A stretch of 64,000 nucleotides of DNA, from contig CP154954.1 in assembly GCA_039621445.1 (NCBI GenBank), positions 41,657,572 through 41,721,571 of the forward strand, given 5' to 3'. The notes under the pieces are model-generated. The model did no database searches. It was not told the DNA's origin and saw only the letters and a list, made by a program, of their open reading frames with translations. Both the position numbers and the translations under genes were made by a program. The DNA comes from Euglena gracilis. Taxonomy: Eukaryota. Positions within the stretch are counted from its first letter, which is position 1, and the number at the start of each line of letters is the position of its first letter. Shown here one piece after another: positions 117 to 58,897 of the stretch.

Positions 117-242
117 CAGGGTTCGATATAAGGAGAGGGGGGGGGGGGGTACGGACCCCCCCCCCCTGCGGGCCAGGAGGGGGGGGGTGGGGACACCCCC
201 CCCCCACCTAAACCATGTACGCCCTCCTTATATCGAACCCTG
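117..242. mobile_element. hAT-like MITE (CAGGGTTCGATATAAGGAG TIR family)
   Basis: 19-bp perfect TIR cagggttcgatataaggag/ctccttatatcgaaccctg; 8-bp TSD cggcacac at 109-116 and 243-250. Confidence 0.9.
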
Positions 243-1233
243 CGGCACACCCTTGCCGCTCAGCACCAGGACCACGTGCTGGATGAGGGCCATCCGGGCG
301 GCCAACTCGTCCATCGGAAGGGGAGAGCGCCTGCCAGCGGAGCAAGCCACCCCCAGGCGGTGGGTGACCTGGGGGGGGGGGTTCGGGCCGCTCCCCTGTT
401 TTCGCCCCAATTGTTCTGGAATCCGCAGGTGTGTTCGTTGGGGGGGGGGGTGTTGATTGTGCGGTCACAAAATAATGGGAATTGTGGGAGTATGGGAAGC
501 CACTGGACTTTCCGTCGTTTTTTTTTGTGTTCCATTTTCCTCGCACCGTTCCCAAGCCCTGAAGAGGAGTCATTTGCAGGGGTAATCAAATTCCAGACAA
601 AAAAATGACAGGGAGTAATGAAATATATCACTTTTTTGGATCCAGATCGGCACAGAGCCTTGATACTGCTACTCTTCTTCGAGAATGCTATCAGCGCCTG
701 ACTTTGGGCATTTTTTTTTTAAACATAATGAACAACTACTGCCATTTTCTGCACTTTTTTAATTTTCAATTTAATTCATTTTCCATTTTTGAGTTTTTTT
801 GCGTCGAGTTTTTTGAGGGTCCATATTGTGTTCCCCCCATCATATCTCCCATCGGTTTTTTTTTTATCTTTTTTATTTCCCCCAGTTCCCGTCGACTGTA
901 GCATATTTGGACATTGTGTGTATCCTTGCGGATGGTTTTTCACTGCCCGAGGACAGCCGTGGTTGTTGACGTCCCCAGAGCGTTTCTCCCGCTCAAACTC
1001 AAGTGACACTCCCCTCCAAGCAGGTTTCCACCACCTCACGTGTCTCCCGTGGGGGGATGGAAAGCCGCGTGGCTGGATTTGGGCCAACACCGACCGCCCT
1101 CCATCACCGCGCACCGAGTCCTGGCCTCACTCTGCAGCCCTCCGATGGGAAGCCCGCCAGAACTGGGCTGGAGGGAAAACCCTGCGCATTGTCAGAAAAA
1201 AGCCCCCCCAGGCAGCCAGGTACCACGAGCACT

Positions 1234-1319
1234 ACTTGAACGTGACTTGAACGTGACTTGAACGTGACTTGAACGTGACTTGAACGTGACTTGAACGTGA
1301 CTTGAACGTGACTTGAACG
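1234..1319. repeat. 11-bp minisatellite (ACTTGAACGTG)n, about 7-8 copies
   Basis: Directly visible perfect tandem repeat. Confidence 0.95.
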
Positions 1320-1524
1320 AACCTCTGTTTGTTGGACGGACACTGGAATGCAAAGGTTCAGGGGACCTTCATTCTCTCCCACCGGGGCTGCACTAAGTGG
1401 GCAGACATTCTCTTCTGGCGCGGCATCAAATGGAATTGGAGGCAGAAGACACGGGGGGTGGTTCCCCTGCCGTGGCGCAGTCCCATAACAGGACTGATGG
1501 TAACGCCAGTGGGGCGCGTCGTCA

Positions 1525-4651: not shown

Positions 4652-4699
4652 CTTGCCCTATGCCTCCTCTGCGCCTATATTCCCCTACATCCTCGTGTA

Positions 4700-5276: not shown

Positions 5277-8200
5277 GGCTCCCGGATCTGGCCTGGGGGG
5301 GGGGGTTGTGGGCCGACCCTAGGGTCGGCCCACGGTCGCCAAAGGTCCCCAAAGGTCGCTATGGTCGACCCCCCCCGAGGCTGTGGGGTGGGTGGCGACC
5401 CTAGAAACCCTTGTGGGCCGACCCTAGGGTCGACTTAGGGTCGGCCCACCACACAACCCCCCCCCCCCCCTACAACCCTAGGGTCGACTTAGGGTCGGCC
5501 CACCCCACGACCTCCCCCCCCCCCTGCCACCTCAGGGTCGACTTAGGGTCGGCCCACCCCACGACCTCCCCCCCCCTCCAAAGAAAAAAAAAAGGAAATT
5601 TTCGGAACAATTTTTGTTGCCCAACTTTTCGAGGGCCCCAAAATAACAAAATCCCTTGTGTTACCCACCCGTTTTGGGGGTCAAATCCCTTTTGTTGCGC
5701 AACTGTTCGAGGGCCCCAAAATAACAAAATCCCTTGTGTAACCCAACTGATATTGGGGGCAAATCCCTTTTGTTGCCCAACTGTTCAAGGCCCCCAAAAT
5801 AACAAAATACCTTGTGTTACCCACCCGTTTTGGGGGGCAAATCCCTTGTGAAACCCAACTGATTTGGGGGGCAAAACCCTTTTGTTGCCCAACTGTTCGA
5901 GGGTCCCAAAATAACAAAATCCCTTGTGTTACCCACCCGTTTTGGGGGCAAATCCCTTGTGTTGCCCAACTGTTCGAGGGCCCCAAAATAACAAAATCCC
6001 TTGTGTTACCCACCCGTTTTGAGGGGCAAATCCCTTGTGAAACCCAACTGATTCGGGGGGCAAAACCCTTTTGTTGCCCAACTGTTCGAGGGTCCCAAAA
6101 TAACAAAATCCCTTGTGTTACCCACCCGTTTTGGGGGCAAATCCCTTGTGTTGCCCAACTGTTCGAGGGCCCCAAAATAACAAAATCCCTTGCGTTACCC
6201 ACCCGTTTTGAGGGGCAAATCCCTTGTGAAACCCAACTGATTTGGGGGGCAAAACCCTTTTGTTGCCCAACTGTTCGAGGGTCCCAAAATAACAAAATCC
6301 CTTGTGTTACCCACCCGTTTTGGTGGCAAATCCCTTTTGTTGCCCAACTGTTCGAGGGCCCCAAAATAACAAAATCCCTTGTGTTACCCACCCGTTTTGG
6401 GGGCAAATCCCTTGTGTTCCCCAACTGTTCGAGGGCCCCAAACTAACAAAATCCCTTGTGTTACCCACCCATTTCGGGGGACAAATCCCTTTTGTTGCCC
6501 AACTGTTCGAGGGCCCCAAAATAACAAAATCCCTTGTGTTACCCACCCGTTTTGAGGGGCAAATCCCTTGTGAAACCCAACTGATTTGGGGGGCAAAACC
6601 CTTTTGTTGCCCAACTGTTCGAGGGTCCCAAAATAACAAAATCCCTTGTGTTACCCACCCTTTTTGGGGGCAAAACCCCTTTTGTTGCCCAACTGTTCGA
6701 GGGCCCCAAAATAACAAAATCCCTTGTGTTACCCACCCATTTCGGGGGACAAATCCCTTTTGTTGCCCAACTGTTCGAGGGCCCCAAAATAACAAAATCC
6801 CTTGTGTGACCCACCCGTTTTCAGGGGCAAATCCCTTGTGAAACCCAACTGATTTGGGGGGCAAAACCCTTTTGTTGCCCAACTGTTCGAGGGTCCCAAA
6901 ATAACAAAATCCCTTGTGTTACCCACCCGTTTTGGTGGCAAATCCCTTTTGTTGCCCAACTGTTCGAGGGCCCCAAAATAACAAAATCCCTTGTGTTACC
7001 CACCCGTTTTGGTGGCAAATCCCTTTTGTTGCCCAACTGTTCGAGGGCCCCAAAATAACAAAATCCCTTGTGTTACCCACCCGTTTTGGGGGCAAAACCC
7101 TTTTGTTGCCCAACTGTTCGAGGGCCCCAAAATAACAAAATCCCTTGTGTTACCCACCCATTTCGGGGGACAAATCCCTTTTGTTGCCCAACTGTTCGAG
7201 GGCCCCAAAATAACAAAATCCCTTGTGTTACCCACCCGTTTTGAGGGGCAAATCCCTTGTGAAACCCAACTGATTTGGGGGGCAAAACCCTTTTGTTGCC
7301 CAACTGTTCGAGGGTCCCAAAATAACAAAATCCCTTGTGTTACCCACCCGTTTTGAGGGGCAAATCCCTTTTGTTGCCCAACTGTTCGAGGGCCCCAAAA
7401 TAACAAAATCCCTTGTGTTACCCACCCGTTTTGGGGGCAAATCCCTTGTGTTCCCCAAATGTTCGAGGGCCCCAAACTAACAAAATCCCTTGTGTTACCC
7501 ACCCATTTCGGGGGACAAATCCCTTTTGTTGCCCAACTGTTCGAGGGCCCCAAAATAACAAAATCCCTTGTGTTACCCACCCGTTTTGGGGGCAAATCCC
7601 TTGTGTTCCCCAACTGTTCGAGGGCCCCAAACTAACAAAATCCCTTGTGTTACCCACCCATTTCGGGGGACAAATCCCTTTTGTTGCCCAACTGTTCGAG
7701 GGCCCCAAAATAACAAAATCCCTTGTGTTACCCACCCGTTTTGAGGGGCAAATCCCTTGTGAAACCCAACTGATTTGGGGGGCAAAACCCTTTTGTTGCC
7801 CAACTGTTCGAGGGCCCCAAAATAACAAAATCCCTTGTGTTACCCACCCATTTCGGGGGACAAATCCCTTTTGTTGCCCAACTGTTCGAGGGCCCCAAAA
7901 TAACAAAATCCCTTGTGTTACCCACCCGTTTTGAGGGGCAAATCCCTTGTGAAACCCAACTGATTTGGGGGGCAAAACCCTTTTGTTGCCCAACTGTTCG
8001 AGGGTCCCAAAATAACAAAATCCCTTGTGTTACCCACCCGTTTTGGTGGCAAATCCCTTTTGTTGCCCAACTGTTCGAGGGCCCCAAAATAACAAAATCC
8101 CTTGTGTTACCCACCCGTTTTGGGGGCAAATCCCTTGTGTTCCCCAAATGTTCGAGGGCCCCAAACTAACAAAATCCCTTGTGTTACCCACCCATTTCGG

Positions 8201-11200
8201 GGGACAAATCCCTTTTGTTGCCCAACTGTTCGAGGGCCCCAAAATAACAAAATCCCTTGTGTTACCCACCCGTTTTGGGGGCAAATCCCTTGTGTTCCCC
8301 AACTGTTCGAGGGCCCCAAACTAACAAAATCCCTTGTGTTACCCACCCATTTCGGGGGGCAAATCCCTTGTGTTGCCCAACTGTTCGAGGGCCCCAAAAT
8401 AACAAAATCCCTTGCGTTACCCACCCGTTTTGAGGGGCAAATCCCTTGTGAAACCCAACTGATTTGGGGGGCAAAACCCTTTTGTTGCCCAACTGTTCGA
8501 GGGTCCCAAAATAACAAAATCCCTTGTGTTACCCACCCTTTTTGGGGGCAAAACCCTTTTGTTGCCCAACTGTTCGAGGGCCCCAAAATAACAAAATCCC
8601 TTGTGTTACCCACCCATTTCGGGGGACAAATCCCTTTTGTTGCCCAACTGTTCGAGGGCCCCAAAATAACAAAATCCCTTGTGTTACCCACCCGTTTTGA
8701 GGGGCAAATCCCTTGTGAAACCCAACTGATTTGGGGGGCAAAACCCTTTTGTTGCCCAACTGTTCGAGGGTCCCAAAATAACAAAATCCCTTGTGTTACC
8801 CACCCGTTTTGGTGGCAAATCCCTTTTGTTGCCCAACTGTTCGAGGGCCCCAAAATAACAAAATCCCTTGTGTTACCCACCCGTTTTGGTGGCAAATCCC
8901 TTTTGTTGCCCAACTGTTCGAGGGCCCCAAAATAACAAAATCCCTTGTGTTACCCACCCGTTTTGGGGGCAAAACCCTTTTGTTGCCCAACTGTTCGAGG
9001 GCCCCAAAATAACAAAATCCCTTGTGTTACCCACCCATTTCGGGGGACAAATCCCTTTTGTTGCCCAACTGTTCGAGGGCCCCAAAATAACAAAATCCCT
9101 TGTGTTACCCACCCGTTTTGAGGGGCAAATCCCTTGTGAAACCCAACTGATTTGGGGGGCAAAACCCTTTTGTTGCCCAACTGTTCGAGGGTCCCAAAAT
9201 AACAAAATCCCTTGTGTTACCCACCCGTTTTGGTGGCAAATCCCTTTTGTTGCCCAACTGTTCGAGGGCCCCAAAATAACAAAATCCCTTGTGTTACCCA
9301 CCCGTTTTGGGGGCAAAACCCTTTTGTTGCCCAACTGTTCGAGGGCCCCAAACTAACAAAATCCCTTGTGTTACCCACCCATTTCGGGGGACAAATCCCT
9401 TTTGTTGCCCAACTGTTCGAGGGCCCCAAAATAACAAAATCCCTTGTGTTACCCACCCGTTTTGGGGGCAAATCCCTTGTGTTCCCCAACTGTTCGAGGG
9501 CCCCAAACTAACAAAATCCCTTGTGTTACCCACCCATTTCGGGGGACAAATCCCTTTTGTTGCCCAACTGTTCGAGGGCCCCAAAATAACAAAATCCCTT
9601 GTGTTACCCACCCGTTTTGAGGGGCAAATCCCTTGTGAAACCCAACTGATTTGGGGGGCAAAACCCTTTTGTTGCCCAACTGTTCGAGGGTCCCAAAATA
9701 ACAAAATCCCTTGTGTTACCCACCCTTTTTGGGGGCAAAACCCTTTTGTTGCCCAACTGTTCGAGGGCCCCAAAATAACAAAATCCCTTGTGTTACCCAC
9801 CCATTTCGGGGGACAAATCCCTTTTGTTGCCCAACTGTTCGAGGGCCCCAAAATAACAAAATCCCTTGTGTTACCCACCCGTTTTGAGGGGCAAATCCCT
9901 TGTGAAACCCAACTGATTTGGGGGGCAAAACCCTTTTGTTGCCCAACTGTTCGAGGGTCCCAAAATAACAAAATCCCTTGTGTTACCCACCCGTTTTGGT
10001 GGCAAATCCCTTTTGTTGCCCAACTGTTCGAGGGCCCCAAAATAACAAAATCCCTTGTGTTACCCACCCGTTTTGGGGGCAAATCCCTTGTGTTCCCCAA
10101 ATGTTCGAGGGCCCCAAACTAACAAAATCCTTTGTGTTACCCACCCATTTCGGGGGACAAATCCCTTTTGTTGCCCAACTGTTCGAGGGCCCCAAAATAA
10201 CAAAATCCCTTGTGTTACCCACCCGTTTTGGGGGCAAATCCCTTTTTGTACCCAACTGTTCGAGGGCCCCAAACTAACAAAATCCCTTGTGTTACCCACC
10301 CATTTCGGGGGACAAATCCCTTTTGTTGCCCAACTGTTCGAGGGCCCCAAAATAACAAAATCCCTTGTGTTACCCACCCGTTTTGAGGGGCAAATCCCTT
10401 GTGAAACCCAACTGATTTGGGGGGCAAAACCCTTTTGTTGCCCAACTGTTCGAGGGTCCCAAAATAACAAAATCCCTTGTGTTACCCACCCTTTTTGGGG
10501 GCAAAACCCTTTTGTTGCCCAACTGTTCGAGGGCCCCAAAATAACAAAATCCCTTGTGTTACCCACCCATTTCGGGGGACAAATCCCTTTTGTTGCCCAA
10601 CTGTTCGAGGGCCCCAAAATAACAAAATCCCTTGTGTTACCCACCCGTTTTGAGGGGCAAATCCCTTGTGAAACCCAACTGATTTGGGGGGCAAAACCCT
10701 TTTGTTGCCCAACTGTTCGAGGGTCCCAAAATAACAAAATCCCTTGTGTTACCCACCCGTTTTGGTGGCAAATCCCTTTTGTTGCCCAACTGTTCGAGGG
10801 CCCCAAAATAACAAAATCCCCTGTGTTACCCACCCGTTTTGGTGGCAAATCCCTTTTGTTGCCCAACTGTTCGAGGGTCCCAAAATAACAAAATCCCCTG
10901 TGTTACCCACCCGTTTTGGGGGCAAAACCCTTTTGTTGCCCAACTGTTCGAGGGCCCCAAAATAACAAAATCCCTTGTGTTACCCACCCATTTCGGGGGA
11001 CAAATCCCTTTTGTTGCCCAACTATTCGAGGGCCCCAAAATAACAAAATCCCTTGTGTTACCCACCCGTTTTGAGGGGCAAATCCCTTGTGAAACCCAAC
11101 TGATTTGGGGGGCAAAACCCTTTTGTTGCCCAACTGTTCGAGGGTCCCAAAATAACAAAATCCCTTGTGTTACCCACCCGTTTTGGTGGCAAATCCCTTT

Positions 11201-13977
11201 TGTTGCCCAACTGTTCGAGGGCCCCAAAATAACAAAATCCCTTGTGTTACCCACCCGTTTTGGGGGCAAATCCCTTGTGTTCCCCAAATGTTCGAGGGCC
11301 CCAAACTAACAAAATCCCTTGTGTTACCCACCCATTTCGGGGGACAAATCCCTTTTGTTGCCCAACTGTTCGAGGGCCCCAAAATAACAAAATCCCTTGT
11401 GTTACCCACCCGTTTTGGGGGCAAATCCCTTGTGTTCCCCAACTGTTCGAGGGCCCCAAACTAACAAAATCCCTTGTGTTACCCACCCATTTCGGGGGAC
11501 AAATCCCTTTTGTTGCCCAACTGTTCGAGGGCCCCAAAATAACAAAATCCCTTGTGTTACCCACCCGTTTTGAGGGGCAAATCCCTTGTGAAACCCAACT
11601 GATTTGGGGGCAAAACCCTTTTGTTGCCCAACTGTTCGAGGGTCCCAAAATAACAAAATCCCTTGTGTTACCCACCCTTTTTGGGGGCAAAACCCTTTTG
11701 TTGCCCAACTGTTCGAGGGCCCCAAAATAACAAAATCCCTTGTGTTACCCACCCGTTTTGAGGGGCAAATCCCTTGTGAAACCCAACTGATTTGGGGGGC
11801 AAAACCCTTTTGTTGCCCAACTGTTCGAGGGTCCCAAAATAACAAAATCCCTTGTGTTACCCACCCGTTTTGGTGGCAAATCCCTTTTGTTGCCCAACTG
11901 TTCGAGGGCCCCAAAATAACAAAATCCCTTGTGTTACCCACCCATTTCGGGGGACAAATCCCTTTTGTTGCCCAACTGTTCGAGGGCCCCAAAATAACAA
12001 AATCCCTTGTGTTACCCACCCGTTTTGGGGGCAAATCCCTTGTGTTCCCCAACTGTTCGAGGGCCCCAAACTAACAAAATCCCTTGTGTTACCCACCCAT
12101 TTCGGGGGACAAATCCCTTTTGTTGCCCAACTGTTCGAGGGCCCCAAAATAACAAAATCCCTTGTGTTACCCACCCGTTTTGAGGGGCAAATCCCTTGTG
12201 AAACCCAACTGATTTGGGGGGCAAAACCCTTTTGTTGCCCAACTGTTCGAGGGTCCCAAAATAACAAAATCCCTTGTGTTACCCACCCTTTTTGGGGGCA
12301 AAACCCTTTTGTTGCCCAACTGTTCGAGGGCCCCAAAATAACAAAATCCCTTGTGTTACCCACCCATTTCGGGGGACAAATCCCTTGTGAAACCCAACTG
12401 ATTTGGGGGGCAAAACCCTTTTGTTGCCCAACTGTTCGAGGGTCCCAAAATAACAAAATCCCTTGTGTTACCCACCCGTTTTGGTGGCAAATCCCTTTTG
12501 TTGCCCAACTGTTCGAGGGCCCCAAAATAACAAAATCCCTTGTGTTACCCACCCGTTTTGGTGGCAAATCCCTTTTGTTGCCCAACTGTTCGAGGGCCCC
12601 AAAATAACAAAATCCCCTGTGTTACCCACCCGTTTTGGGGGCAAAACCCTTTTGTTGCCCAACTGTTCGAGGGTCCCAAAATAACAAAATCCCTTGTGTT
12701 ACCCACCCATTTCGGGGGACAAATCCCTTTTGTTGCACAACTGTTCGAGGGCCCCAAAATAACAAAATCCCTTGTGTTACCCACCCGTTTTGAGGGGCAA
12801 ATCCCTTGTGAAACCCAACTGATTTGGGGGGCAAAACCCTTTTGTTGCCCAACTGTTCGAGGGTCCCAAAATAACAAAATCCCTTGTGTTACCCACCCGT
12901 TTTGGTGGCAAATCCCTTTTGTTGCCCAATTGTTCGAGGGCCCCAAAATAACAAAATCCCTTGTGTTACCCACCCGTTTTGGGGGCAAATCCCTTGTGTT
13001 CCCCAAATGTTCGAGGGCCCCAAACTAACAAAATCCCTTGTGTTACCCACCCATTTCGGGGGACAAATCCCTTTTGTTGCCCAACTGTTCGAGGGCCCCA
13101 AAATAACAAAATCCCTTGTGTTACCCACCCATTTTGAGGGGCAAATCCCTTGTGAAACCCAGCTGATTTGGGGGGCAAAACCCTTTTGTTGCCCAACTGT
13201 TCGAGGGTCCCAAAATAACAAAATCCCTTGTGTTACCCACCCGTTTTGGGGGACAAATCCCTTTTGTTGCCCAATTGTTTGAGGGTCCCAAAATAACAAA
13301 ATCCCTTGTGTTACCCACCCGTTTTGAGGGGCAAATCCCTTGTGAAACCCAACTGATTTGGGGGGCAAAACCCTTTTGTTGCCCAACTGTTCGAGGGTCC
13401 CAAAATAACAAAATCCCTTGTGTTACCCACCCGTTTTGGGGGACAAATCCCTTTTGTTGCCCAATTGTTCGAGGGTCCCAAAATAACAAAATCCCTTGTG
13501 TTACCCACCCGTTTTGGGGGGCAAATCCCTTGTGAAACCCAACTGATTTGGGGGGCAAAACCCTTTTGTTGCCCAACTGTTCGAGGGTCCCAAAATAACA
13601 AAATCCCTTGTGTTACCCACCCGTTTTGGGGGACAAATCCCTTTTGTTGCCCAATTGTTCGAGGGTCCCAAAATAACAAAATCCCTTGTGTTACCCACCC
13701 GTTTTGGGGGGCAAAGCCCTTGTGTAACCAAACTGATTTGGCGACCCTAAGTCGACCCTAGGGTTGTGGGGGGGGGGGGGGGGTCGGGGGGTGGGCCGAC
13801 CCTAGGGTCGGCCCACGACCCTAAGGCGACCCTGGGGTCGGCGACCCTAGGGTCGGCCCACTAGGGGGGTCTCCCGGACGGCTCCTTGGGCGACCTTTGG
13901 CGACCTTTGGCGACCGTGGGCCGACCCTAGGGTCGCCCCAAACCCCCCCCCCCCCAGGCCAGATCTACCCCCCCCCC
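5277..13977. mobile_element. 8.7-kb foldback/Mutator-like non-autonomous element with 9-bp TSD, containing a satellite array
   Basis: TSD ccgagctgc at 5268-5276 and 13978-13986; inverted ends gatctggcctggggg/cccccaggccagatc; subterminal palindromes gggccgaccctagggtcggccc at both ends; excision restores RAEL|LALEQ. Confidence 0.8.
5612..13740. repeat. Satellite array of 77-78-bp monomers plus interspersed 35-bp subunits, with higher-order structure
   Basis: Monomer cttttgttgcccaactgttcgagggccccaaaataacaaaatcccttgtgttacccacccgttttgggggcaaatcc; subunit cttgtgaaacccaactgatttggggggcaaaaccc. Confidence 0.97.
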
Positions 13978-18306: not shown

Positions 18307-18651
18307 TTTAGACACTGTGCCGACACCAGCCGTATCTTCTGACCCTGTTTTGTGCTTTCCCTGTCCATCAGTGAGCCAAAGTAGGCCAAAAATAGGTGTG
18401 GATCGACTAACAGACTTGATGCACTGCTGTGGATCGACTAACAGACAAGTACCGGGGGACCTAGGTCCCCGAGCTGTCCCCCCCGTACTGTTCCCATTGG
18501 GGGAGTGCCAAACGGTAGACTGGGGGGGGGGGGTAGTGGGTAGTCGGCCGACTAGTCGGCCGACCAATTGGGTAGTCGGCCGACTAATTGGTTGGCCGAC
18601 TAGTCGGCGGACCAATTGGGTAGTCGGCCGACTACCCACTCTAATGTACTA

Positions 18652-18831
18652 CCACCCCCCCCCCCTTTATTGTCCCACCGACCTGCCCCCGGGAGGCCCG
18701 ACCGGACAATAAAGGGGGGGGGACAATAAAGGGGTACCAAAGGAATTTCATTGGCCGGGCCAAAAAAACCCCCCGTCGGCCGGGGCCCAGGGACAATAAA
18801 GGGGGGGGGACAATAAAGGGGGGGGGGGTGG
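18652..18831. mobile_element. ~180-bp TA-flanked MITE (CCACCCCC-TTTATTGTCCC TIR); near-identical inverted copy at 23159-23339
   Basis: TIRs, TA flanks, second copy in opposite orientation. Confidence 0.85.
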
Positions 18832-35850: not shown

Positions 35851-35867
35851 TGTTTGGCTGTTAGCCC

Positions 35868-45200: not shown

Positions 45201-47866
45201 CGGTAGTGCGCCAGATCATCGCCGCAGCCAGGCTTGTGCTTAGTCGGGTGCCTACCCCACGGGAGGGGATGCTAAAGGCTAAAGGTGCCAAAGGCGCCGG
45301 GGGCCCGGAACAGGCTGTATTTTAGTCAGGTGCCGACCCCACCCCAGGGGGGGGGGTGCCTGCCTGGGCAGGCACTTCAAGGCACTCCCGATCCGACCCC
45401 CCCGGGGGGGGGGGGGTAGGGCACACACGGCCCTACCTCAAGTGCCTAGCACAAGTGCCCTAGCACAGACCCGGCGCCAAAGGCGCGGGGAGCCAAAAAT
45501 GGCCTATTTTCAAAGGAATGTGCCTGGGCACAGGCCAAAATCCGACCCCCCCCCCAGTGCCTGCCTGGTCAGGCACTCAAAAGCACTCCGGACCCCCCCC
45601 TCCCCCCCGGGGTTGGTAAAAAAACAGCCTGGCCCGGAAAAGGCCTTTTTCAATGAGAATTTTCTGGGTCCCCCCGGACCCCCCTCCCTCCCCCGGGGGT
45701 GTGCCTTCTTGGGGCAGGCACCCCCTAGCAACCCACCCACCCCCCTCCCCCCCCCCCCCGGTCGGTAAGCACAAGCCTGGCCGCAGCCTCCTCCCTCTCA
45801 ACGGCGCCACTCCTGGAGAAGGTGCGGGCGCATGACACGGCCGCCATTGAGACCGGTCATCCCAAGGCAGTGGGGAACGACTCCGCCGATTTCTGGGCCA
45901 AGGAGGCTGCCCTTGGCCGGGCCGCATCAACGTGGTCTCCTCCCCCCCCCCCCATGCTTTGACGATCCCTTGCTCCTGCAAGACGCCTCAGGGTTGACGA
46001 TCTACGACCTCCCCGCAGCGTTCGCCTGGGCCTGGTGGCTCAGGTGCCTGGTCTCCTGGGAGAAGCGCTCATCATTACGCCTCCTCATTTTGTTTCCCGG
46101 CATCCACCCCAATCGCCGTTTCCCGGCAGGGTTGTTCGATTAATCGAAAGTCGATCAATCGGTCAAGACCCCCCCAATCATCGTTCGTTCGTCCGGTGAT
46201 CGATTAATCGATTTTCAATGCCGCACATCCCGATTTTTCCGCACTCCACACCGTATTTTTTTGCACTTCCGGTCAATATTTTGCACTTTATCTCAAAAAT
46301 GTTTGCACATGTTAAAAATTTGTTCACATTTTGTCTTAAAAATGTTTGGCATTTTATCTCAAAATATTTGCCTACGTTCCGAAATTTTTTGCACACGGAT
46401 CGGGTGTTTTGCACTTTTGCCCTTAAAGTCCGCGTCTTAGGTGCAGGGACTCAGGACAGGGTGTGCGTCTACGCCGCCGGACTTCAGGCATGAGGCCTGT
46501 GTCTTAAAACGCAGTCTCCGTCCAAAATGCTGCGTCATGAATAATGATTTTGTTGGAACCCCCCAAAACCGACCAAAATGGTTCAGAAAGCGGAAATGAA
46601 TGGTTTGAAATGGAAATGTCATTGCTGCAAAAGCGCATTGACCTCAGAATTTGTCCCACTTCATTCCAACCTTTGACAAATGAGTTACATTGGTTCGTTT
46701 CAAGCCGTTTTGAGCCGTTTTTCGAATACAAATCGTTGTAAATGGACAATACAACTCCAACGCCAACATGTGGTATAGAGAAAAATCAAAGACAGGAGTT
46801 CTTGGACATTTCCAAATACCAATTTCTGGTTTTGGAGTTTGCGCATTCATTCACGGTTGGGAAAAATCTTGACCATCACAAATGCACTGATCAAAGAAGC
46901 GCATTGAGTGTTTGTCGCGCTCAATGTTAGAAAGGAGAGACATAGCGATGTGATGTAGTGTGATGATTTTTGGCAAAGAAAAGCACTGCATATGTGGGCA
47001 GCTTGCATCAAAACCCCAAATATTTTGCATTTTTGGCTGGTTTTCTGCCATTTCAGGCAGTTTTTTTTTGCAATAATTTTTAGCATTTTTGGAATTTTTG
47101 GGGTCAATTCATGGTCATCATCAGGGGCTTTTTTTAAAACAGGGGGGGAGGGGGGGTCCCCCCCCACCCACCCACCCCCTGGGGGGTCCCCGCCGGGGGG
47201 GGGGTCCCGGGGGACCCACAAAATCGCGAAAAGTGCTAAAAATAGCATTTTTTTGGCGCCTGCGGCGCTGAAAAGTATATCCCATTTTTTCCCCTATTGT
47301 CCATGTTGTCCACATTGTCCGTATGTCAAAAACAAACTCGACATTGGTGTTCTTCAACACCGTTCTTCAACACCAACCAAACCACATGCTCACCGAATTT
47401 TGCCCACGTTCAACTAACCCATTTGTATAACCAACGAACCCATTTCCGCACTTTTTTTACCACCCAAGGGACCTGCCTCAAGAAAAAACCCTTGGGTGAT
47501 GAGTGGGTACTCATCCAATGATGATGAGGACACTAAGGGTTTTCAGAGACCCCACATCGAATTCTACTCCCCTGGTCACAAGTGAGGGGCACCATGGCTG
47601 ACATTGTCGGTTATGGTGAACAGAGGGTGACGCCTTGCTTGTGCATTTTTTTTTTAACCAAAAATGCCTTCATTTCAGCTGTTTTTGGTAATTTTGGTTT
47701 GATTTTGGGCTTATTGTTGGAAATTTTTCTCAGTCTTTTTTCCCTTAGGAATGTACAAACTCAGCGCATTTTTTGCGCATTTTTTTGCGCATTTTTGCGC
47801 ATTTTTTCCGAGGGCCGTCCAGCGCATTCCCCCCCCCCTGTCCACTGGTCCACTGCAGGTGAGCAA

Positions 47867-48183
47867 CAGGGCGGTCCTTAGGGGACAGGAAAGTTTTTTT
47901 TTTATATTTCCTTAAGGACCGCCCCCCTTTCGGCCAAAGGGCCAACCAAGGGCTGGACTAGGACTTGGAAAAGGCAAAAATTAAAAAGTCGAAAAACACA
48001 GTTTTTGATGATTTGGGTGGATGGATGATGGTCCAAGGGTGCCAGGAATCAATTTTTTTTCCTGATGTCGACCTGTTCTCGCTGAAAAATGCCAAAATTT
48101 ATTTGCCCATTTTCCGGTAAATTTTTCACTGAGTGTGCTGGGACAGCGGAGTTTTTTTTTTTATTTGCTTAAGGACCGCCCTG
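47867..48183. mobile_element. hAT-like MITE (CAGGGCGGT family); relative at about 56456-56775
   Basis: TIR cagggcggtcctta/taaggaccgccctg; TSD gtgagcaa. Confidence 0.92.
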
Positions 48184-48191
48184 GTGAGCAA

Positions 48192-50290
48192 TGCCGCCTT
48201 CCCTGCCTTTGCCGCCGGAGGACTGGGTGGCGTCCTTCCACAATCCCCTCGCAGCTGCACTGTTGCCGGAGTCCCACCTGCCTGCCCCTTGTCCCCATCG
48301 GATGCCCAGCGCTTCCTCGCTCGTTTGCATTGCCTGCTCGCAGAACGCCTGGCCAAGTGGATGAGTCGCCGCTGCGAGCTGATTGCCGCCGCCCCACAAC
48401 GTGTCCCGGACGGTCTGGGCCTGGTACCCCAGGAATGGGTGCTGGGACAACGCCAGCCTTCGCACCTGCCACCGGAGCGCCGCCTCACGGTGACGGAGTT
48501 GTGACAGGCAGAGGGTGCCTGCCCGCCCGGTTTTGGCCCGAAACCGGGGGGGGGTATTATTTTGGCGGCTGAAGTCGGATCCCAATGGGGGGGGTATTAT
48601 TTGGGGGGTTTACATACCTCTGGACACCTCCGTCGGCAACACGGAAATATTCAGAGCCTAAAAAAGCAACAAAAGGGCCAAAATTCACCTGGCCCGTGTA
48701 GCACCATCTGGGGAGAGAGGGCCCCCCGACACACTGCAACCTGTAACACATCACAGGGATTGTCACAAGCTCAGGGGCTTCCATTACACATTGCTGTTGG
48801 TAAATGTTGCGCCCGCACAACAGTTATCCATTGCGCGTATGCGCAATGTAAAACTGTTGCGCATGTGCGCAATGTCTTTTTTCATGCGGTCTCCCCACCT
48901 CCTTTGCCATCATCCCAGGTCCCATCCAGGCTTGTGCTTAGTCGGGTGCCTACCCCACGGGGGGGGGTGCCAGGGGCAGACACCCCATAGCACCCGATCC
49001 GACCCCCCCGGGGGGGGGTAGGGTTTTGGGGGGTGCCTGCCCCTAGCAGGCACCCCCCTCCGACCCCGGCGCCTTCGGCGCTGGGGCCTGGAAAAGGCCA
49101 TTTTCAATGAAAAGTTTCTGGGTCCCCCCCCCAGGTGTGCCTGCTAGGGCAGGCACCCTATCGCTCCCCCCCCCCCCCCCCCCCCCCCCGGTCGGTAAGC
49201 ACAAGCATGGTCCCATCGTGTGGCCCCGTTCGCCTGAAGTGGCTGCGGGAGCGCCTGGTCCTTTTACAGGAGGAGACGGAGACCTGCCCATCAGCTGCTG
49301 GGTCTTCAGTAGAGGTCTTGCTGGCTCTCTTCGAACGCAGCACCGGTGAGTCCTTCCAACCCCAGGGGTGAATGTGCAGCAACGTGACGGCTCCATTGGC
49401 TGCGTGTTGGGCCTCCTGTGTCTGCACCCCCCGCCCTCGTTGTCCCCTCTGCTGTCCCGAGTTCCCAAGGCAGGGGAGGTGCCTCCAGCCAACAGCTGGT
49501 ACCAGCACTGCAGGCGCGCAAAAGCTGCAGCAAACGCCACCCTGGCCGCCTGGCTGCGGTGCCACCGGTTTCTGAAGCCGGTGGCACCCGAGGAGGGCGA
49601 GTCCGGGATGGCCCTTCTCCTCTTGTGGGAGGTTGACCATGGCTGCGCCTTCCCCAGCGACGCTGGGGATAGATCCTCTTCCTTGTTGGCAGGCTTTTCG
49701 CGGCGGCTGAAAACCACAGCAGAGCAAGACTCCGAGCTGCAGACCTGGTTCGTCCCGAAAGACATGCAGTGCCCTCTCCACCCAGGTCTCCGACCTTCCC
49801 ATCAGGTGCGTTGGCCTGTGAAAGTCATCACCTCCGGCGGTATGTCGGAAACGTGGTTCAGCCATTTTTCGGGACGATGGAAAGCCTACTTTTTGTCCCT
49901 TGTGTGTCCAGCATCACAGGCCGCACCAGCGCTGCCGTCCGCCGGAGCTACATCGAGTTCAGATGCTCTTGCACAGGGGCAGCTGCCGGGGAGCCAGCCC
50001 TGAAACACAGGAGGACGGCTCCTCCCGTGCGCCCAGCCGAAATGACAACGAGTTCAGCTGGGGCCACCTCGCCCGCGGCGCCGGCAATTCGGCGCCCCTT
50101 CATCCACCGTGTCGTCGCAGGCACCACCGCGGAAGAGGCGGGTCACTCTCGGGTCCTGGCTGCAACCACAGCGGCCACCTGAGGGAGCCCATGGCAGAGC
50201 TGCACAGGGGCCGCCCACCTAACGGGGACTGGGACGCGGGCAATTCCCAGGTGACCCCTAGGGAGCCCAGCTGGCGCCCCAGGTGCGCAA
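48192..50290 (+). pseudogene. GC-rich coding-like remnant, possibly the 3' part of the LINE-like ORF
   Basis: Protein-like frames (48192-48500, 49218-50003) on the same strand and with similar composition to the LINE remnant; no diagnostic motif recognised. Confidence 0.35.
48927..49209. mobile_element. hAT-like MITE (CAGGCTTGTGCTTA family)
   Basis: TIR as above; TSD gtcccatc. Confidence 0.92.
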
Positions 50291-50609: not shown

Positions 50610-51316
50610 CAGGGTTGTTTTTTTTTAGTCGGGTGCCGACCCCACCCCGGGGGGGGGTGCCTGCCTGGGCAGGCATTCCAAGGCACTCCAAATCCGACTC
50701 CCCCCCGGGGGGGGGGGGGGTAGGGCAAACTGCCAAAAGTGCCCTGGCACAACCCCGGCGCCAAAGGCGCCGGGAGCCAAAAATGGCCTATTTTCAAAGG
50801 AATGTGCCTGGGCACTGGCCGAAATCCGACCCCCCCCGGGGGGGTAGTGCAGGGTTTGATATAAGGAGGGCGTACATGGTTTAGGTGGGGGGGGTGTTCA
50901 CCCCAACCCCCACCTCCTGGCCCGCCGGGGGGGGGGTCCGGACCGCTCCCCCCCACCTGCCAGGGGGGTCCGGACCGACACTCGGGCGTATCCCCTGGAC
51001 TCATCCCAAAAAGGGTCGATTTTTTCCTCCGGCGCTTTGCGCCGAAAATTTTTTGCATTTTTGGCACATTTTTTTGCCCAAAAAGTGCCCAAAATGGCAC
51101 TTTTGGTCGTTTTGGGGTGTCAAAATTTTTCGGTAACCCAGACCGCGCACCTGTTTAGGTGGGGGGGGGTGTCCCCCCCATCCCTCCCCTCCTGGCCCGC
51201 AGGGGGGGGGGTCCTGACCCCCCCCCCGCCTGTCCTTAGATTGAACCCTGGGGTAGGTCCTTGCTGGGCATGCCCTCCGGACCCCCCCCCCCCCTGGGGT
51301 TGGTAAAAACAGCATG
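50610..51316. mobile_element. hAT-like MITE with a nested second MITE (50850-51250, family of 117-242)
   Basis: Outer TSD gtccagac/atccagac; inner cagggtttgatataagga...ttgaaccctg with TSD gggtagtg/gggtaggt. Confidence 0.75.
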
Positions 51317-52063: not shown

Positions 52064-52237
52064 AAGGCCAAGAGGAATGAAAAGGCCGCCAAGGTTTCGG
52101 GCACCCATCACGATGATCACTCAGTGGACCACAACAAGTACAAGACGCGCCTGTGTCGCAATTGGAAGGAGACTGGGAAGTGCCCTTACGGGGACACCTG
52201 TGTCTATGCCCATGGGGCTAAGGAAATGCGCTGCAGG
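52064..52237 (+). CDS. Exon of a CCCH zinc-finger (TIS11/ZFP36-like motif) RNA-binding protein
   Basis: [27 protein letters not shown] = C-x8-C-x5-C-x3-H with YKT lead-in; bounded by CTG-N5| upstream and |RNN-CAG downstream, with no GT donor at the proposed exon end. Confidence 0.88.
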
Positions 52238-53613: not shown

Positions 53614-53928
53614 CAGGCTTGTGCTTAGTCGGGTGCCTACCCCACGGAGGGGGGAGGGGTGCTAGGGGCAGGCACCCCATAGCACCCGATCCGACCCCCC
53701 CCCCCCGGGCGTAGGGTTTTGGGGGGTGCCTGCCCCTAGCAGGCAACCCCCTCCCAGCCCGGCGCCGAAGGCGCCGGGGGCCCGGAAAAGGCCATTTTCA
53801 ATGAAAATTTTCTGGGTCCGGCCCGGACCCCTATCCCCCCCCCCCCGGGGGGGGGTGTGCCTGCTAGGGGCAGGCACCCTATAGCACCCACCCCCCCCTC
53901 CCCCCCCCGGTTGGTAAGCACAAGCATG
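53614..53928. mobile_element. hAT-like MITE (CAGGCTTGTGCTTA family)
   Basis: TIR as above; TSD gcggacac. Confidence 0.92.
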
Positions 53929-54427: not shown

Positions 54428-57400
54428 CGCCAGGGTGACTCCCGGAATTTCTTGGGAAAAAATCAACGCCATGATGAGGCCCTTTTGAGGAATTTTTTGA
54501 CTCTTGGGTGCTTGGGCAGGGAATGAGTGGAGTGGAATGAGTGGAATGAATGAGTGGAGTGAGCGAAGCTGCGATTTTGGCTTTGGGTTTCGGTTCTCTC
54601 GGGTCACATTCAGTTGGTTCAAATGCAGGGGTGGGGAATTGATAACCACAATTTTCCCGCAATTTCTGCAGTTGTCCACCATTTTTGAAGCTTTTCCACA
54701 ATTTTTCCGCATGAACCTGAAACGGATGGCGAAGTGAGTTCCGGCCATGCCTTGAGCGTTTCATGAGGGAACCCTGGTGCATTTTTTTGATATTTTGTTG
54801 CCAATTTGCCAAAGTTTGCCAATTTTTACAAATTATTTATAATTATTTCTGAAATCAGTGTGTTCCAGAAAGTACAAAATCCTTTGTCTGGGTTTTTTGT
54901 TGGAAAAAGTGTCAATAACATCTCAAAGCAATCACCAATTTGACAAAAATAGCTGCAATTCCCACAATTTTCCCTCTGTTTTCCCCCACACATTTTTCCT
55001 CTTTCTTTTCCCGCAGTTTTCCTGCAATTTTTCTCAAGGCTTCCCTGGAAAATGAAGGGTAAAAAGGCTTCCCTGCAAAATGGGTCACCACCATCCTTTT
55101 CAAGGTTGGATGCCCGTTGCGAGTCCTCCTCCTGCAATGAGGGTTATCTGGATGAGGGTCATCTGGTGTTCACCCCAAGGTGGCTTCCGCTTCCAGCTCT
55201 GATTATTTATGAAATCCTCACAACACGTTCGTTATCAAACGGAGTTCAAATTTGACAAGTTAATCATTGTGGGCAGCCTGTTTTTATTGAGGTTGTTTTT
55301 TTGTTTGCTTTTTTAAAATTTGACAATATTAAAAAAACAAAAAAACGCCCATGAGGTTTTGCACAAAAAAATTTTATATGTTTATTTTCAATCATTTTGG
55401 CAACCTCTGGGTATTTTCTGCCAAAAACTCATTTCCACAAACATGAAAAACGTCATAAAATTGCATTTTTTCTGCATTTTGACCCATGTTTTGGCAGTTT
55501 TTGAACTTAGTAGGATTCAAAGTATCTTATCTTAAAGAGTATGGTTTGGGTGTTTCATAACGAGTTTTTTCAAAGAAATTTCCCTTTTGTCTTTTTAATG
55601 GTTTTTTTTGGTGTTTTTTCTTCTTCAAGAAACACATTGTTTTTTTTAAAAAATGCCCACTATGAAGTCAACAGGTCGAGAGGATTGGGGGGACTGCTAC
55701 CTGAGAATTGGCAATCCAGAGATGTGTTTCCCTTGGGGGTTGGTATGTGGGATGCCGTCAGGTGATATCCTGAGCGGAGGTCAGCACACCAGTCCTTTTG
55801 ATGTACATTGGAATCCCCATTTCACATTTCATCCTTTTGCTGCAAATGATGGAGGTGGATTGAGCGTCTGCGAAGCGGTGTAATGTTGGGTTTCTTTTTT
55901 TTTTGAACAAGGCATCTTCTCATTTTGGTGGTTTTTTATTCTGTGAGGTTTTGGTTCAGGTCCTCCCCCAGCGATCCCCCCAGCACTTTTTTTTAATTTG
56001 GTTTTCGTCGAAACAGATGGAACTCATTTTGGTCCGACCCTTTTTTAAAGAAATTGGTTCAAATGCATAATATCAAATGGATGAGGTGTGTGAGATTTTT
56101 TTTAAGGACCCGGGGGGGGGGTCGGCACCAAACCAGCCCCTGGGGTGGGACAGGGGATTTGGGGGTCAATTTTGTCCCAAAAATGTTAGTTCTTCGCACT
56201 GAAAAAAAAGAGGGACCCCCATCCATCGTGGGGTGGGCTGAGCTGGGACCCCTCCCGCCGTGAAAAATAATTTAATAAAAAATAATAATGATTCCTTGAG
56301 ATCCACCCAATGGATGACGCAATGCGTTCTGATAATTCGTCAAATGGGTCTCAAGGCAGGGGAGGGCACAAGCGCCTTTTCTGCATTTGTGTATTTTTTG
56401 ATTTTTGGCGGAATTTGCCAGGGGCTGTACAGAACTGTGTGTGGGGGGGGGGGGTCAGGGCGGTCCTTTGAAACCGGAAGGGTCAGGAAAGTTTTTTTTC
56501 GTTTTCTTAAGGACTGCCCCCCCCCTTTCTGCCGACCAAGGGCTGGACTGGGACTTGAACGGGGTCAAAAACTCAAAAGCCGAAATGCACATTTTTTGAT
56601 GATTTGGGTGGATGGGCGATAGTCCAAGGATGCCAGGGATTATTTTTTTCCTGGTGTCGACCTCTTCTTGCCGGAAAATACCAATTTTTCTTGCCCACTT
56701 CCCTGGTTTTTTTTCCATTGACTGTGCTGGAACAGCGGAGTTTTTTTTTTTTTAATTTTGTAAAGGACCGCTGTGGGGTGGGGTCCCCCCCCCCAGGGAT
56801 GGATGGGAAGCCCTTCGGTATTGAGGTAGGTGGTAGGGGGGGGGTCCCCACCACCCCCCTGGGGGGATAAGGTGGTAGGGGGGGGCGGACCACCCCTCCT
56901 TAACAGGTGCCAAAAATAGCAGAAAATTTTCTTCCGGCGCACAGCGCCGGAAAATGAGCAAAACCCCCCCTTTTGCTGACTTTTGGACATATTGCCCACT
57001 TTTTGACGTGTTGGTGTTCCCCCCCCCAAAAAAATGTTCAAAAAATTTCAAAAATGAGCATTTTTGGATTGATTTTCAAAGAAAAATCAGGGATTTTTGA
57101 CCGATTTCAAACAGATTTCCGGCCCTTTGCCCGTCCATGAAATCGAAAAATTTTCGGCCCTCCCTCAGTTTCGAGTAGGAGGGGGGGGGGTCCGACCCTC
57201 AAGGCTTCCCATCCATCCCTGGCCCCCCACCAGGCCTTTCCATTTTTCTGGGGGGTGCCGATTTCTACGCCAAACTTTTCCCTCAGCTCCCCTATGATTT
57301 TTTTTGTTCCCAAGGGGACCCTTCGTGCCAAGTTTGCCCCTCCCCCCCAGTTCTGCTGGGAATTTTTTTTCAACTTGGAAAAAATTGGCACTTTGAGCCT

Positions 57401-58265
57401 GAGGTGATTTTTTCCTCTTCAGTGGAAATGTGTTCTCAGTATGAGCTTTTCTGCAGTCATCCATAATTTTCTTGAAGGTTCCAATGTCATCCCACCCAAC
57501 TCACCACAGCCCCCATACCTCCTTCCTTTGCCCGCTAACCACCCATGAACAACGACCACCCCCCAGTTGGGGGATACAGTTTCGGGGGTACATACGACCA
57601 CCCTGGCCGGGGTTGTAGGTGGCTTTGAAAACTGGGTTGTTTTTTTGTTTTTGTACTCAGCCGTCCGACCACCCCCTGGTCGGGGGTGGTGGGTTGGGTG
57701 GCGTGTATGACCCCCCCCCCCGGTCAGGGGTCATAGGAACCCGGTCGGTGGGCAAAGGGGGGGGTACATGAGCCCTGGGTGTTCACATGTCAGTGTGCCA
57801 TTTTGAAGAGTCGGACAAAGGGTGCTCCCGCATTTTTTAAAGTATTTTGCGCCTTCTGTTGTAGAGCGGCACCCGTTGGGTCCTTTTTACAGCGTTCCCG
57901 CCGAACGCTGACCACTCCCCTCTCTGCCGTCTGTAATGAGCCCAACATTCAGTTTTCTCAAACCCAGGGCTGTTATCTTCCCTCACAGTTTAGCCTCATA
58001 TTCCTTTTTAACGATCATGTGGAAACTTGGCCTCCTTCAAAGTTGGTTCCTCACCCAGAGGCCAGATATATTTATGGCTGTTGATGCCCCAAGGCTGCAT
58101 AATTCTTTTGAAGAATTGCAGACAAGGCTTGCTGTTGAAAACCTTCAATATGCCACAGAAGCAACAATATTGCATATCAATTTATCATTTCAAAAAATTA
58201 CCATATCAATGAAGGGTTGCATCAAATTCTCGAAATTTGATGTGCAACAGTTTTCTTGCAACAAT

Positions 58266-58897
58266 CAGTCCATTGCTTAAGGGTTCACAGCAGGCTTCTT
58301 TTTAAGTCACCTGACCCCCCCCCCCCCCCCCGGGGGGGGGGGGGGGGGGGGGGGGTGGGTCGGGGCCCCCCCCCCCCCCCCCCGGGGGGGGGGGGTCCCG
58401 CGCCGGAGGCGCTGGGTATACCTTTTCGGCGCGAAGTGCCGAAAATTTTTGAAAATTGCCTTTAACGGGCCCGATTTTGGGGGGGTCCCCGGACCCCCCC
58501 CCCTTTGGGGGGGGTCCCGCGCCACCCTGGGTGGGTGGGGGGGACCCCCCCCCTCCCCCCCCCCGGGGGACTTAAAAAGAAGCCTGGTTCACAGTAGGCC
58601 AAATTTGGCGAGCGAAATCCCAATGACCTCCCTGGAGGGGGTCCGCTAGCAATTTTTACAGTGACCGGCGCGAAGTGCCGCAATTTTTTGGAGGACTCCC
58701 AAAACCTGCCAAACAGGCCCATTTTTGGCCATTTTTGGGATTTTTGCAAAATCAGCCAAAAAATGTATTAAAAACTTCATTTCTTTCCTGGAGAAAAAAT
58801 TTTTCCTGGGGGGGGGTGGCTGGTCTAGCTCCTTTTTTCCAGTGTCTAGTGAAATGGCTAACCAGTGACCCTCCTGGGGACCTTAAGCAATAGCCTG
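58266..58897. mobile_element. hAT-like MITE with a nested hAT-like MITE (58291-58586)
   Basis: Outer TSD gcaacaat, TIR cagtccattgcttaagg/ccttaagcaatagcctg; inner TSD gttcacag, TIR caggcttctttttaagtc/gacttaaaaagaagcctg. Confidence 0.9.

Follow-up and report, generated by a model that had tools for sequence, protein, structure and literature searches.

Euglenid nonconventional (NC) introns, whose origin and removal mechanism have been debated as questions since the 1990s, lack GT-AG and carry CAG at positions +4 to +6 and CTG at −8 to −6 as consensus features (PMC12501133; Milanowski et al. 2014, 2016). In E. agilis they account for a reported 71.8% of introns overall (PMC12501133). The Euglena NC-intron code, as defined experimentally by Nomura et al. 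2025 (PMC12501133), reads 5′-N3-CAG/stem/CTG-N5(-6), followed beyond the junction by a purine (R) of the downstream exon. According to that study, terminal pairing of about 12 bp and the CAG and CTG trinucleotides are essential, point substitutions in either trinucleotide abolish splicing, and synthetic introns built on these rules, with spacers of 3 nt at the 5′ end and 5–6 nt at the 3′ end, are spliced (PMC12501133). The same Y/R is found at both NC-intron junctions (PMC6221363; PMC4770533), and the gapC intron of E. agilis, a recent gain, carries eight-nucleotide direct repeats (PMC4770533). In E. agilis, 84.4% of introns are 'slidable', with junction direct repeats given as the reason; the 2025 genome-wide study, as it describes its procedure, set aside these introns, the class in which TSDs would show (PMC12501133).

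A MITE-like origin for NC introns was said by the sequence-only reading of this locus to have been suggested before, and it is indeed proposed in several published accounts (PMC3935182, PMC11282704, PMC12501133). Already published are the MITE origin, the TIR/TSD labels and an 8-nt repeat at a newly gained intron. As noted in the 2014 paper, euglenids had at that time yielded no identified transposable element. The MITE families themselves and the TSD arithmetic appear to be new. The introner elements and TIR/TSD noncanonical introns of Micromonas, Amoebophrya and Fritillaria (PMC11282704) are similar in that MITE-like elements become introns and the TSD helps to restore the exon. However, their TSDs are 3–5 nt long and they are removed by the spliceosome, sometimes a modified one, whereas the window elements have an 8-bp TSD and the TIR stem itself would be the signal.

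The window, a stretch of 64,000 nucleotides from Euglena gracilis, contains many such elements (Table 1). All 11 elements listed in the sequence-only reading have exact 8-bp TSDs and CAG-initiated TIRs, as it had claimed, with an identical 8-mer directly flanking both sides. Their 3′ ends are CTG in seven cases, ATG in three and CTA in one, and 10–14 of the first 14 bases are inverted-complementary. Independent scans of the window added two perfect-TSD cases, at 27799–28122 (GCCCGGAA) and 30596–30997 (GCTCCCTC). With a CA/TAG start, a TIR of at least 10/14 and no more than one TSD mismatch, 24 matches were obtained, three of which (63350–63416) were discarded as microsatellite artefact. The other 21 are elements with 13 distinct TSDs, corresponding to 13 distinct perfect-TSD insertion events; the remaining eight copies are carried within a 4.4-kb tandem array (25737–47284) and are therefore not independent insertions. 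Together with three degenerate copies whose TSDs match at 6/8, this gives 16 insertion events, in line with the earlier estimate of at least 16 sites. The length of the flanking direct repeats peaks at 8 bp (15 non-palindromic matches; lengths of 7 and 9 bp gave 7 and 3), where a mean of 0.1 per window is expected by chance (20 second-order Markov resamples).

Table 1. MITE copies in the window and the gene model around the copy at 32082.
Feature	Coordinates	Strand	Details
MITE family F, 126 bp	117–242	.	perfect 19-bp TIR CAGGGTTCGATATAAGGAG; TSD CGGCACAC at 109–116 and 243–250
MITE family G, 99 bp	26891–26989	.	ends CAG/CTA; TSD AACCTGGG
Family G, tandem-array copies	starts 31294, 39988, 44400		
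MITE family A (outer)	27717–28263	.	ends CAG/CTG; TSD GCCGCAGC
Family A (27717), array copies	40815–41368, 45229–45779		same TSD
MITE family H, nested in family-A copy	27799–28122	.	TSD GCCCGGAA
Family H, array copies	40897–41215, 45311–45631		
MITE family C	29594–29879	.	TIR CAGGGGTTTTTTT; TSD GTCATCAT
Family C, other copies	42705–42985, 38301–38575		array; mutated end, respectively
MITE family I	30596–30997	.	ends CAT/ATG; TIR CATAGTGGGCA; TSD GCTCCCTC; within LINE-like RT frame
Family I, array copies	26206–26615, 39293–39688, 43703–44100		
MITE family B, 236 bp	32082–32317	+	CAG/CTG; TSD CGTGGGCC; + strand fits full published NC-intron code
MITE family A	33904–34220	.	ends CAG/ATG; TSD AGTGGAAC
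MITE family B	47867–48183	.	14/14 TIR CAGGGCGGTCCTTA; TSD GTGAGCAA
MITE family A	48927–49209	.	ends CAG/ATG; TSD GTCCCATC
MITE family A	53614–53928	.	ends CAG/ATG; TSD GCGGACAC
MITE family E (outer)	58266–58897	.	TIR CAGKCYATTGCTTAAGG; TSD GCAACAAT
MITE family D, nested in E	58291–58586	.	18-bp TIR CAGGCTTCTTTTTAAGTC; TSD GTTCACAG
Older F-like copy	50850–51250	.	ends CAGGGTTTGATATAAGG / CCTTAGATTGAACCCTG; flanks GGGTAGTG / GGGTAGGT, 6/8
Older I-like copy, 76% to 30596	55265–55664	.	TSD AAGTTAAT / AAGTCAAC, 6/8
Older B-like copy, 79% to 47867	56456–56775	.	low-complexity flanks, 6/8
Host gene model of MITE 32082	31981–33330	+	exons 31981–32078, 32323–32702, 32752–32850, 32895–33025, 33081–33330+
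Host-gene introns	32079–32322 (predicted)		244 nt (MITE+8); three GT-AG introns of 49, 44 and 55 nt

TIRs and a TSD of fixed length, at unrelated sites and in multiple copies, are the features of class II TIR transposons and MITEs. Family A has four perfect-TSD copies and family B two, with degenerate ones besides. The targets of the MITEs include other MITEs, unannotated DNA, a pogo-like HTH gene and an array of LINE-like reverse-transcriptase sequence. Two are nested, H in the family-A copy at 27717 and D in E at 58266. An empty site with a single target copy was found for H: GCCCGGAA occurs once in the family-A copies at 33904, 48927 and 53614, and twice, flanking H, in the copy at 27717. 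A search of the window for empty sites of the other elements found none, because their insertions are common to all tandem units. The elements are true MITEs with 8-bp TSDs, TIRs, nesting and end-to-end pairing, and they agree with the published code.

Euglenid NC introns and the window elements are alike in their terminal stem, junction direct repeats and lack of GT-AG. The CAG and CTG motifs of NC introns are both present in 8 of the 13 perfect elements (scored as 5′ CDG / 3′ CH′G complementary motifs), and six of these eight (6/13 overall) match the whole code on one strand or both, the downstream-exon purine included. In all 13 elements the two ends base-pair with each other (−16 to −36 kcal/mol; z −3.3 to −9.6), and the paired stretch inside CAG and CTG is about 12 bp long, as in NC introns. 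Folded at full length, the 32082 element does no better than shuffles (z −1.27), its 5′ arm pairing with an internal copy. In contrast to NC introns, the window copies are defined as DNA transposon insertions and lie mainly outside genes, and in five of the 13 one end or both read CAT/ATG or CTA, termini that are predicted to remain unspliced from the point mutants reported in PMC12501133.

CAG/CTG termini, a TIR stem and an 8-bp TSD together make an element fit the NC code by construction, and taking it out would restore the target. The proposal that 3 nt plus 5 nt make exactly one TSD, so that splicing would restore the target, holds arithmetically against the code as published (PMC12501133). 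Restoration follows from any pair of spacers that add up to 8, however, so the spacer geometry also fits by construction; the TSD accounts for the sum, 3+5=8, and not for the 3/5 split that it had been thought to explain. The reported tolerance of a 6-nt 3′ spacer (PMC12501133) would mean removal with a scar, against exact restoration. Free-standing MITE families with an 8-bp TSD supply a reason why the spacers, both fixed by experiment, total 8 nt, and the same Y/R at both junctions is expected if both copy positions 5/6 of the TSD.

Only one copy, 32082–32317, lies in a plausible gene; the other 12 of the 13 perfect copies are in repeats or unannotated DNA. Removal of this element plus 8 nt leaves a frame of 304 aa (the other two frame classes give 189 and 199 aa), a length reached at 0 of 4000 random positions, and this frame runs on through three GT-AG introns matching an E. 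gracilis transcript product. Restoration of this frame is the one indirect sign that the copy may be removed from mRNA. A protein search against 1.84 billion representatives returned two matches, one of them EukProt Euglena gracilis EG_transcript_15903, to which the exon model is 80.6% identical over 108 aa without gaps, bearing out the earlier assignment to a euglenid genome. The host gene model encodes a CENP-B/Brinker-like HTH protein, probably of pogo-like transposon origin itself. The coding status of its N-terminus is weak (Pfam KIF2A-like_1st, E 0.13), and across the same N-terminal stretch another frame is open in P0001, a paralogous contig product. Protein database searches found no product spanning the predicted 32078/32323 junction. 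Across all elements the +8 frame class was best in only 4/13, where 4.3 are expected by chance, which indicates that most copies lie outside coding frames.

The preferred reading, which we regard as probable, is that these are non-autonomous cut-and-paste DNA transposons (MITEs) of the euglenid nuclear genome whose anatomy is the NC-intron signal, and that NC splicing is the precise excision of this transposon group at the RNA level. Each insertion would duplicate 8 bp of target, and the resulting order of TSD8, CAG, stem arm of about 12 bp, second stem arm, CTG and TSD8 would be the same object as the published N3-CAG/stem/CTG-N5 with its following R. From a read-through transcript, splicing would take out the element together with the 3 TSD nucleotides directly to its left and the 5 directly to its right, and would leave the sequence as it stood before insertion. 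The spacer sum (3+5) would be set by TSD length. We infer that the copies are spliced from RNA and that NC introns genome-wide derive from these MITE families; the window MITEs are likely to be the long-suspected source of Euglena NC introns, judging by their anatomy. A wider claim, on which we are evenly balanced, is that NC splicing is a dedicated excision system for one living 8-bp-TSD transposon group, with offsets tuned to the TSD, every exonic insertion erased from mRNA, and the MITE families as the ongoing source of most Euglena introns. As a bolder corollary, the excision factor may read the TIR stem as a transposase does, or may descend from a transposase.

At least nine sequence families are present, and a 14-bp terminal consensus, CAGGSTKGTGCTTA, is common to them (26 ends). 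Such common TIRs mean that the families are related, contrary to the earlier description of several unrelated ones, and they point to one related transposase group, which is most likely hAT-like. TSDs of 8 bp are characteristic of the hAT superfamily, whose terminal motif is 5′-YARNG. Among the 26 ends, position 1 is C/T and position 2 is A in all 26, position 3 is G in 21, and position 5 is G in 11 and C in 14. The CAGGG/CAGGC start presumably fits the hAT terminal pattern, which argues against another superfamily. MITEs of the hAT superfamily (e.g. Ds-type) are alike in 8-bp TSD, short CAG-start TIRs, non-autonomy and nested insertions. Ds-type elements can reportedly be spliced out of maize transcripts, in work from 1994 attributed to Giroux; Ds uses cryptic GT-AG sites, whereas the removal proposed here would be non-spliceosomal and TIR-guided, with TSD-compensating offsets. 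Unlike in hAT MITEs, G stands at TIR position 5 in only 11/26 ends, and a Pfam search of the window's 282 ORFs of 90 aa or more detected no hAT, Merlin or P transposase domain. The search for a hAT transposase proposed earlier, run on these window ORFs, thus came back empty. Of the label 'hAT-like', the 8-bp TSD stands; membership of hAT is not established, and the label rests on TSD length and termini, from which we infer the superfamily.

The elements could instead come from another 8-bp-TSD superfamily (Merlin, P or undescribed), a possible but clearly less probable case in which the intron link may still hold. The lack of a transposase in the window and the CAT/ATG ends of family I agree with this, as does a literature search that found no report of hAT in Euglena. 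According to PMC8101967, E. gracilis itself carries two Merlin families with an intact DDE and TSDs of 8 bp, but all Merlin TIRs begin 5′-GG, whereas the window elements start CAGG (0 of 26 ends begin GG, 25 CA and 1 TA). It is unlikely that these are ordinary MITEs without a working splicing link, with hAT-generic ends and TSDs, a coincidental match to the code, and copies that are retained or silenced. The position of 12 of the 13 perfect copies outside plausible genes, the chance-level result for the +8 frame class and the five elements with off-code termini would suit such MITEs, but three independent features (terminal trinucleotides, pairing of about 12 bp, and a spacer sum equal to TSD length) coincide with the mutagenesis-defined code as reported (PMC12501133). 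The 8-nt repeats at the new gapC intron (PMC4770533), the shared junction Y/R (PMC6221363; PMC4770533) and the restored 304-aa frame also speak against coincidence. The direction could also be reversed, with NC introns as the primary mobile entity, circular intron RNA copied and re-inserted, and the non-genic copies intron-derived. Excised NC introns are, per a review, circular RNAs with full-length ends; if cut by the 3/5 rule, a circle of this kind would hold exactly one TSD-length spacer between the TIRs. This reversal is very improbable: the copies sit in non-coding repeats and inside each other, facing either way, their clean 8-bp TSDs are of the kind left by DDE transposition, and no reverse-transcription hallmarks were seen among the aligned family-A copies. 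Least probable of all is an origin of the 8-nt junction repeats in double-strand-break repair (Milanowski et al. 2016), as put forward for the gapC intron (PMC4770533); for the window elements it is contradicted by the occurrence of several copies per family, which have conserved TIRs and lie at unrelated sites with a different 8-mer at each.

The MITE-origin hypothesis gains a concrete donor in free-standing MITE families whose termini are the same and whose TSD is fixed at 8 bp. Such donor families turn the question of intron origin in euglenids into simple tests, for which public genomes and an existing knock-in assay are at hand.

Each of the 11 MITEs for which the sequence-only reading had named a flanking 8-mer does carry it, as identical copies that abut the first and last base of the element (11/11). 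All 11 start with CAG and end with CTG (seven), ATG (three) or CTA (one), and 10–14 of the first 14 bases of their TIRs are inverted-complementary. A scan independent of that list started from inverted seeds of 9 bp, let the boundary slide between −2 and +12, and required a flanking direct repeat that was neither palindromic nor of low complexity. It returned 15 pairs with 8-bp repeats, 7 with 7-bp repeats and 3 with 9-bp repeats, while its 6-bp matches were mostly the same elements with the boundary off by one base. The chance level at 8 bp was a mean of 0.1 in 20 second-order Markov resamples of the window. A second scan, for a CA/TAG start, a TIR of at least 10/14 and a target-site duplication (TSD) with at most one mismatch, gave 24 matches, 3 of them a microsatellite artefact at 63350–63416 and 21 real; displaced-flank controls gave raw counts of 4, 6, 0, 2 and 12 matches. 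The 21 real matches represent 13 distinct duplicated 8-mers. The remaining eight are not separate events, because they are the same insertions carried along in a tandem array of a 4.4-kb LINE-like unit. With three older copies added (see table), the earlier figure of at least 16 sites is upheld, made up of 13 perfect and 3 degenerate events.

The nested family H element has a paralogous empty site: GCCCGGAA is present singly at the exact position in three other family A copies. Empty sites were also sought across the units of the 4.4-kb array and none was found, since every unit has the same insertions.

By internal sequence the elements form about nine families. Family A has four perfect-TSD copies, which are 84–93% identical, and family B has two; degenerate relatives aside, the other families are single copies. 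The elements are 99–632 bp long and non-coding, with abundant internal G and C runs. In families A, C, D, F and H, long internal runs of G lie opposite runs of C, at lengths of 10–20 nt (e.g. 33930–34000 and 58332–58384). The lengths of these runs vary among copies, and the variation may be biological or homopolymer sequencing error. A scan of metagenomes for family A copies elsewhere, using a 24-nt family A end, gave 0 matches. The families had been described as unrelated, but they are related: 26 ends give one terminal consensus, CAGGSTKGTGCTTA (C25 A26 G21 G22 S T19 K G16 T21 G13 C14 T21 T24 A19). This shared consensus suggests that all of them depend on a single group of related transposases.

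Among superfamilies, hAT fits best with the 8-bp TSD and with a CAGG start, which we take to match the hAT terminal motif. We therefore favour the label hAT-like, which has about an even chance of being right. A Pfam domain search of 282 stop-to-stop ORFs from the window outside its satellite, each 90 aa or longer and supplied in sets as alignments, detected no transposase domain of the hAT, Merlin or P type. Merlin would also account for the duplication length, as two E. gracilis Merlin families with 8-bp TSDs have been described (PMC8101967); these were the only E. gracilis DNA transposons with 8-bp TSDs that our literature searches found. However, Merlin TIRs begin with GG according to the same paper, whereas 0/26 ends in the window do so.

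The splicing code of euglenid nonconventional introns was derived in E. gracilis by knock-in mutagenesis as 5'-N3CDG-/-CH'GN5-6|R (Nomura et al. 2025, PMC12501133). In that study, all bases of CAG and CTG are required, the 5′ spacer has to measure 3 nt, no more and no less, the 3′ spacer measures 5 nt but may also be 6 nt, and ~12 bp of pairing is required inside the motifs. The downstream exon preferably starts with a purine, and synthetic 50-nt introns made by these rules were spliced (PMC12501133). A MITE with CAG…CTG ends, a 12–14-bp TIR and an 8-bp TSD has this same structure. Removal of 3 nt, the element and 5 nt leaves TSD positions 1–5 followed by positions 6–8, which is the original target, and the arithmetic proposed from sequence is thus correct. 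The same proposal suggested that this geometry would explain the 3/5 offset of the intron consensus; it does account for the sum of both spacers, 8, and leaves the 3/5 split unexplained.

End-to-end pairing of the termini is present in 13/13 elements. Both CAG and CTG occur in 8/13, and the whole code, including the purine, is present on at least one strand in 6/13. The five elements without the CAG and CTG pair (three family A copies, G and I) have CAT/ATG or CTA ends and so are not expected to be spliced, as the point mutants of PMC12501133 predict.

The family B copy at 32082–32317 lies in a plus-strand gene model and carries the full code on that strand. The predicted intron spans 32079–32322 (244 nt), and exon 2 would begin with G at 32323. 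Deletion of this copy with 8 nt joins the ATG frame from 31981 to the downstream exon in a 304-aa open frame, compared to 189 and 199 aa for the alternative frame classes, and the restored frame continues into homology-validated exons. A spanning frame as long as 304 aa was found at 0/4000 random window positions. Among all the elements, this copy alone has such indirect evidence for removal from RNA. Against splicing of this copy, a paralogous contig product is open in a different frame over the same stretch, and the host gene is transposon-like. The fold of the whole element is no better than that of shuffles (z −1.27), and database searches with the right-hand ORF (32327–32821) and the left-hand ORF returned no junction-spanning protein. 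A KIF2A-like reading of the restored N-terminus was dropped, its Pfam match being weak (E 0.13). Frame restoration was also rejected as a general test, as it was not enriched: the class that removes the element plus 8 nt was best in 4/13, which is the chance level; most copies lie outside coding sequence. In the LINE-like unit, deletion of the I and G copies with 8 nt each extends the reverse transcriptase frame to 333 aa; this reflects the geometry of insertion and is no evidence of splicing.

ORF 32327–32821, searched exhaustively against 1.84 billion representatives, gave only two matches, both downstream of the 32082 junction, one of which is EukProt Euglena gracilis EG_transcript_15903. 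Once two GT-AG introns (49 and 44 nt) are taken out, the exon model aligns to the protein of this transcript at 80.6% identity over 108 aa, gapless (E 1e-42), which places the DNA in Euglena or a close relative, as the sequence-only reading had supposed. Frame continuity alone predicts a third such intron (55 nt). Matches of the encoded protein to Brinker/CENP-B/Tc5-type HTH domains are weak, all under Pfam cut-offs, and from these the host gene itself is probably of pogo-like transposon origin. A NADET-like motif near 33400, downstream in this gene, suggests a pogo-type DDE domain; Pfam did not detect such a domain there.

Features of the window, with coordinates
Feature	Coordinates	Strand	Details
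Older MITE copy	50850–51250		6/8 flanks
Older MITE copy	55265–55664		6/8 flanks
Older MITE copy	56456–56775		6/8 flanks
Nested insertion	27799		H inside A
Nested insertion	58291		D inside E
Satellite	5612–13741		~8 kb, unit 77–78 bp; consensus begins AAATCCCTTGTGTTACCCACCC
Tandem array	25737–47284		~4.4-kb unit; units 95–97% identical
Multi-exon gene	31981–33500	+	Brinker/CENP-B/Tc5-like HTH protein; between 4.4-kb array units
LTR-retroelement pol fragment	34283–35871	−	RVT_1 E 3e-16, RT_RNaseH E 6e-25
Tristetraprolin-type CCCH zinc finger	52154–52213	+	KYKTRLC...C...C...H; zf-CCCH E 2e-12, 152-aa ORF
~1-kb element	21632–22678		15-bp TIR CGCCGGTTCGGGCGG; flanks TTCCAGAA; one-base boundary shift gives 10-bp GTTCCAGAAC

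The window is repeat-rich. Its satellite has higher-order periods of 112, 155, 190, 267 and 344 bp. The 4.4-kb unit encodes a LINE-like reverse transcriptase, in whose frame we read the motif ...SISFADDVALIA..., and has an RNase-H-like frame too. Four MITE insertions were in place in this unit before its duplication, and the array is broken at 31697–36787 by ~5.1 kb of other DNA. Outside the satellite, Pfam searches of ORFs with 90 aa or more detected nothing beyond RVT_1/RT_RNaseH and one CCCH zinc finger, and all frames of the window were examined for a second CCCH finger, with none detected. The ~1-kb element, whose termini lack the CAG start, is possibly a member of another group of DNA transposons. 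At 18538–19833, several inverted repeats are built from palindromic GTAGTCGGCCGACTA motifs with palindromic flanks, which mimic TSDs in naive scans. No other RNA genes were detected in the window by Rfam at gathering thresholds or by a tRNA scan.

Published junction details are compatible with the TSD reading. Both junctions of nonconventional introns are reported to show the same Y/R (PMC6221363; PMC4770533), which is expected if each is a copy of TSD positions 5 and 6. The third base of the downstream exon has been reported as C; this base corresponds to TSD position 8, which is C in 7/13 TSDs here and in 9/13 when the opposite strand is read. A recently acquired intron in one E. agilis strain has junctions with direct repeats of eight nucleotides, which exceed those of the other introns that the authors analysed (PMC4770533). 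Introns made 'slidable' by junction repeats reach 84.4% in E. agilis and were excluded before derivation of the code (PMC12501133).

A MITE origin of nonconventional introns was proposed in 2014 (PMC3935182) and restated in 2016, 2018 and 2025 (PMC12501133), and a 2024 review already calls CAG/CTG 'TIR' and the junction repeats 'TSD' (PMC11282704). The 2014 paper states that no euglenid transposable element had been identified by then (PMC3935182). In the main texts of open-access PubMed Central and bioRxiv, we found neither an 8-bp TSD as a rule nor the link between the 3 + 5 spacers and the TSD, and neither a superfamily assignment for such elements nor any account of free-standing MITE families in euglenids that have such ends. 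We regard the elements and their geometry as certain, and a functional link between them and nonconventional splicing is probable; the combined statement of elements, geometry and functional link is, in our judgement, quite likely to hold. The finding describes no new kind of system, and provides concrete, well-supported evidence for the existing MITE-origin hypothesis together with an explanatory step.
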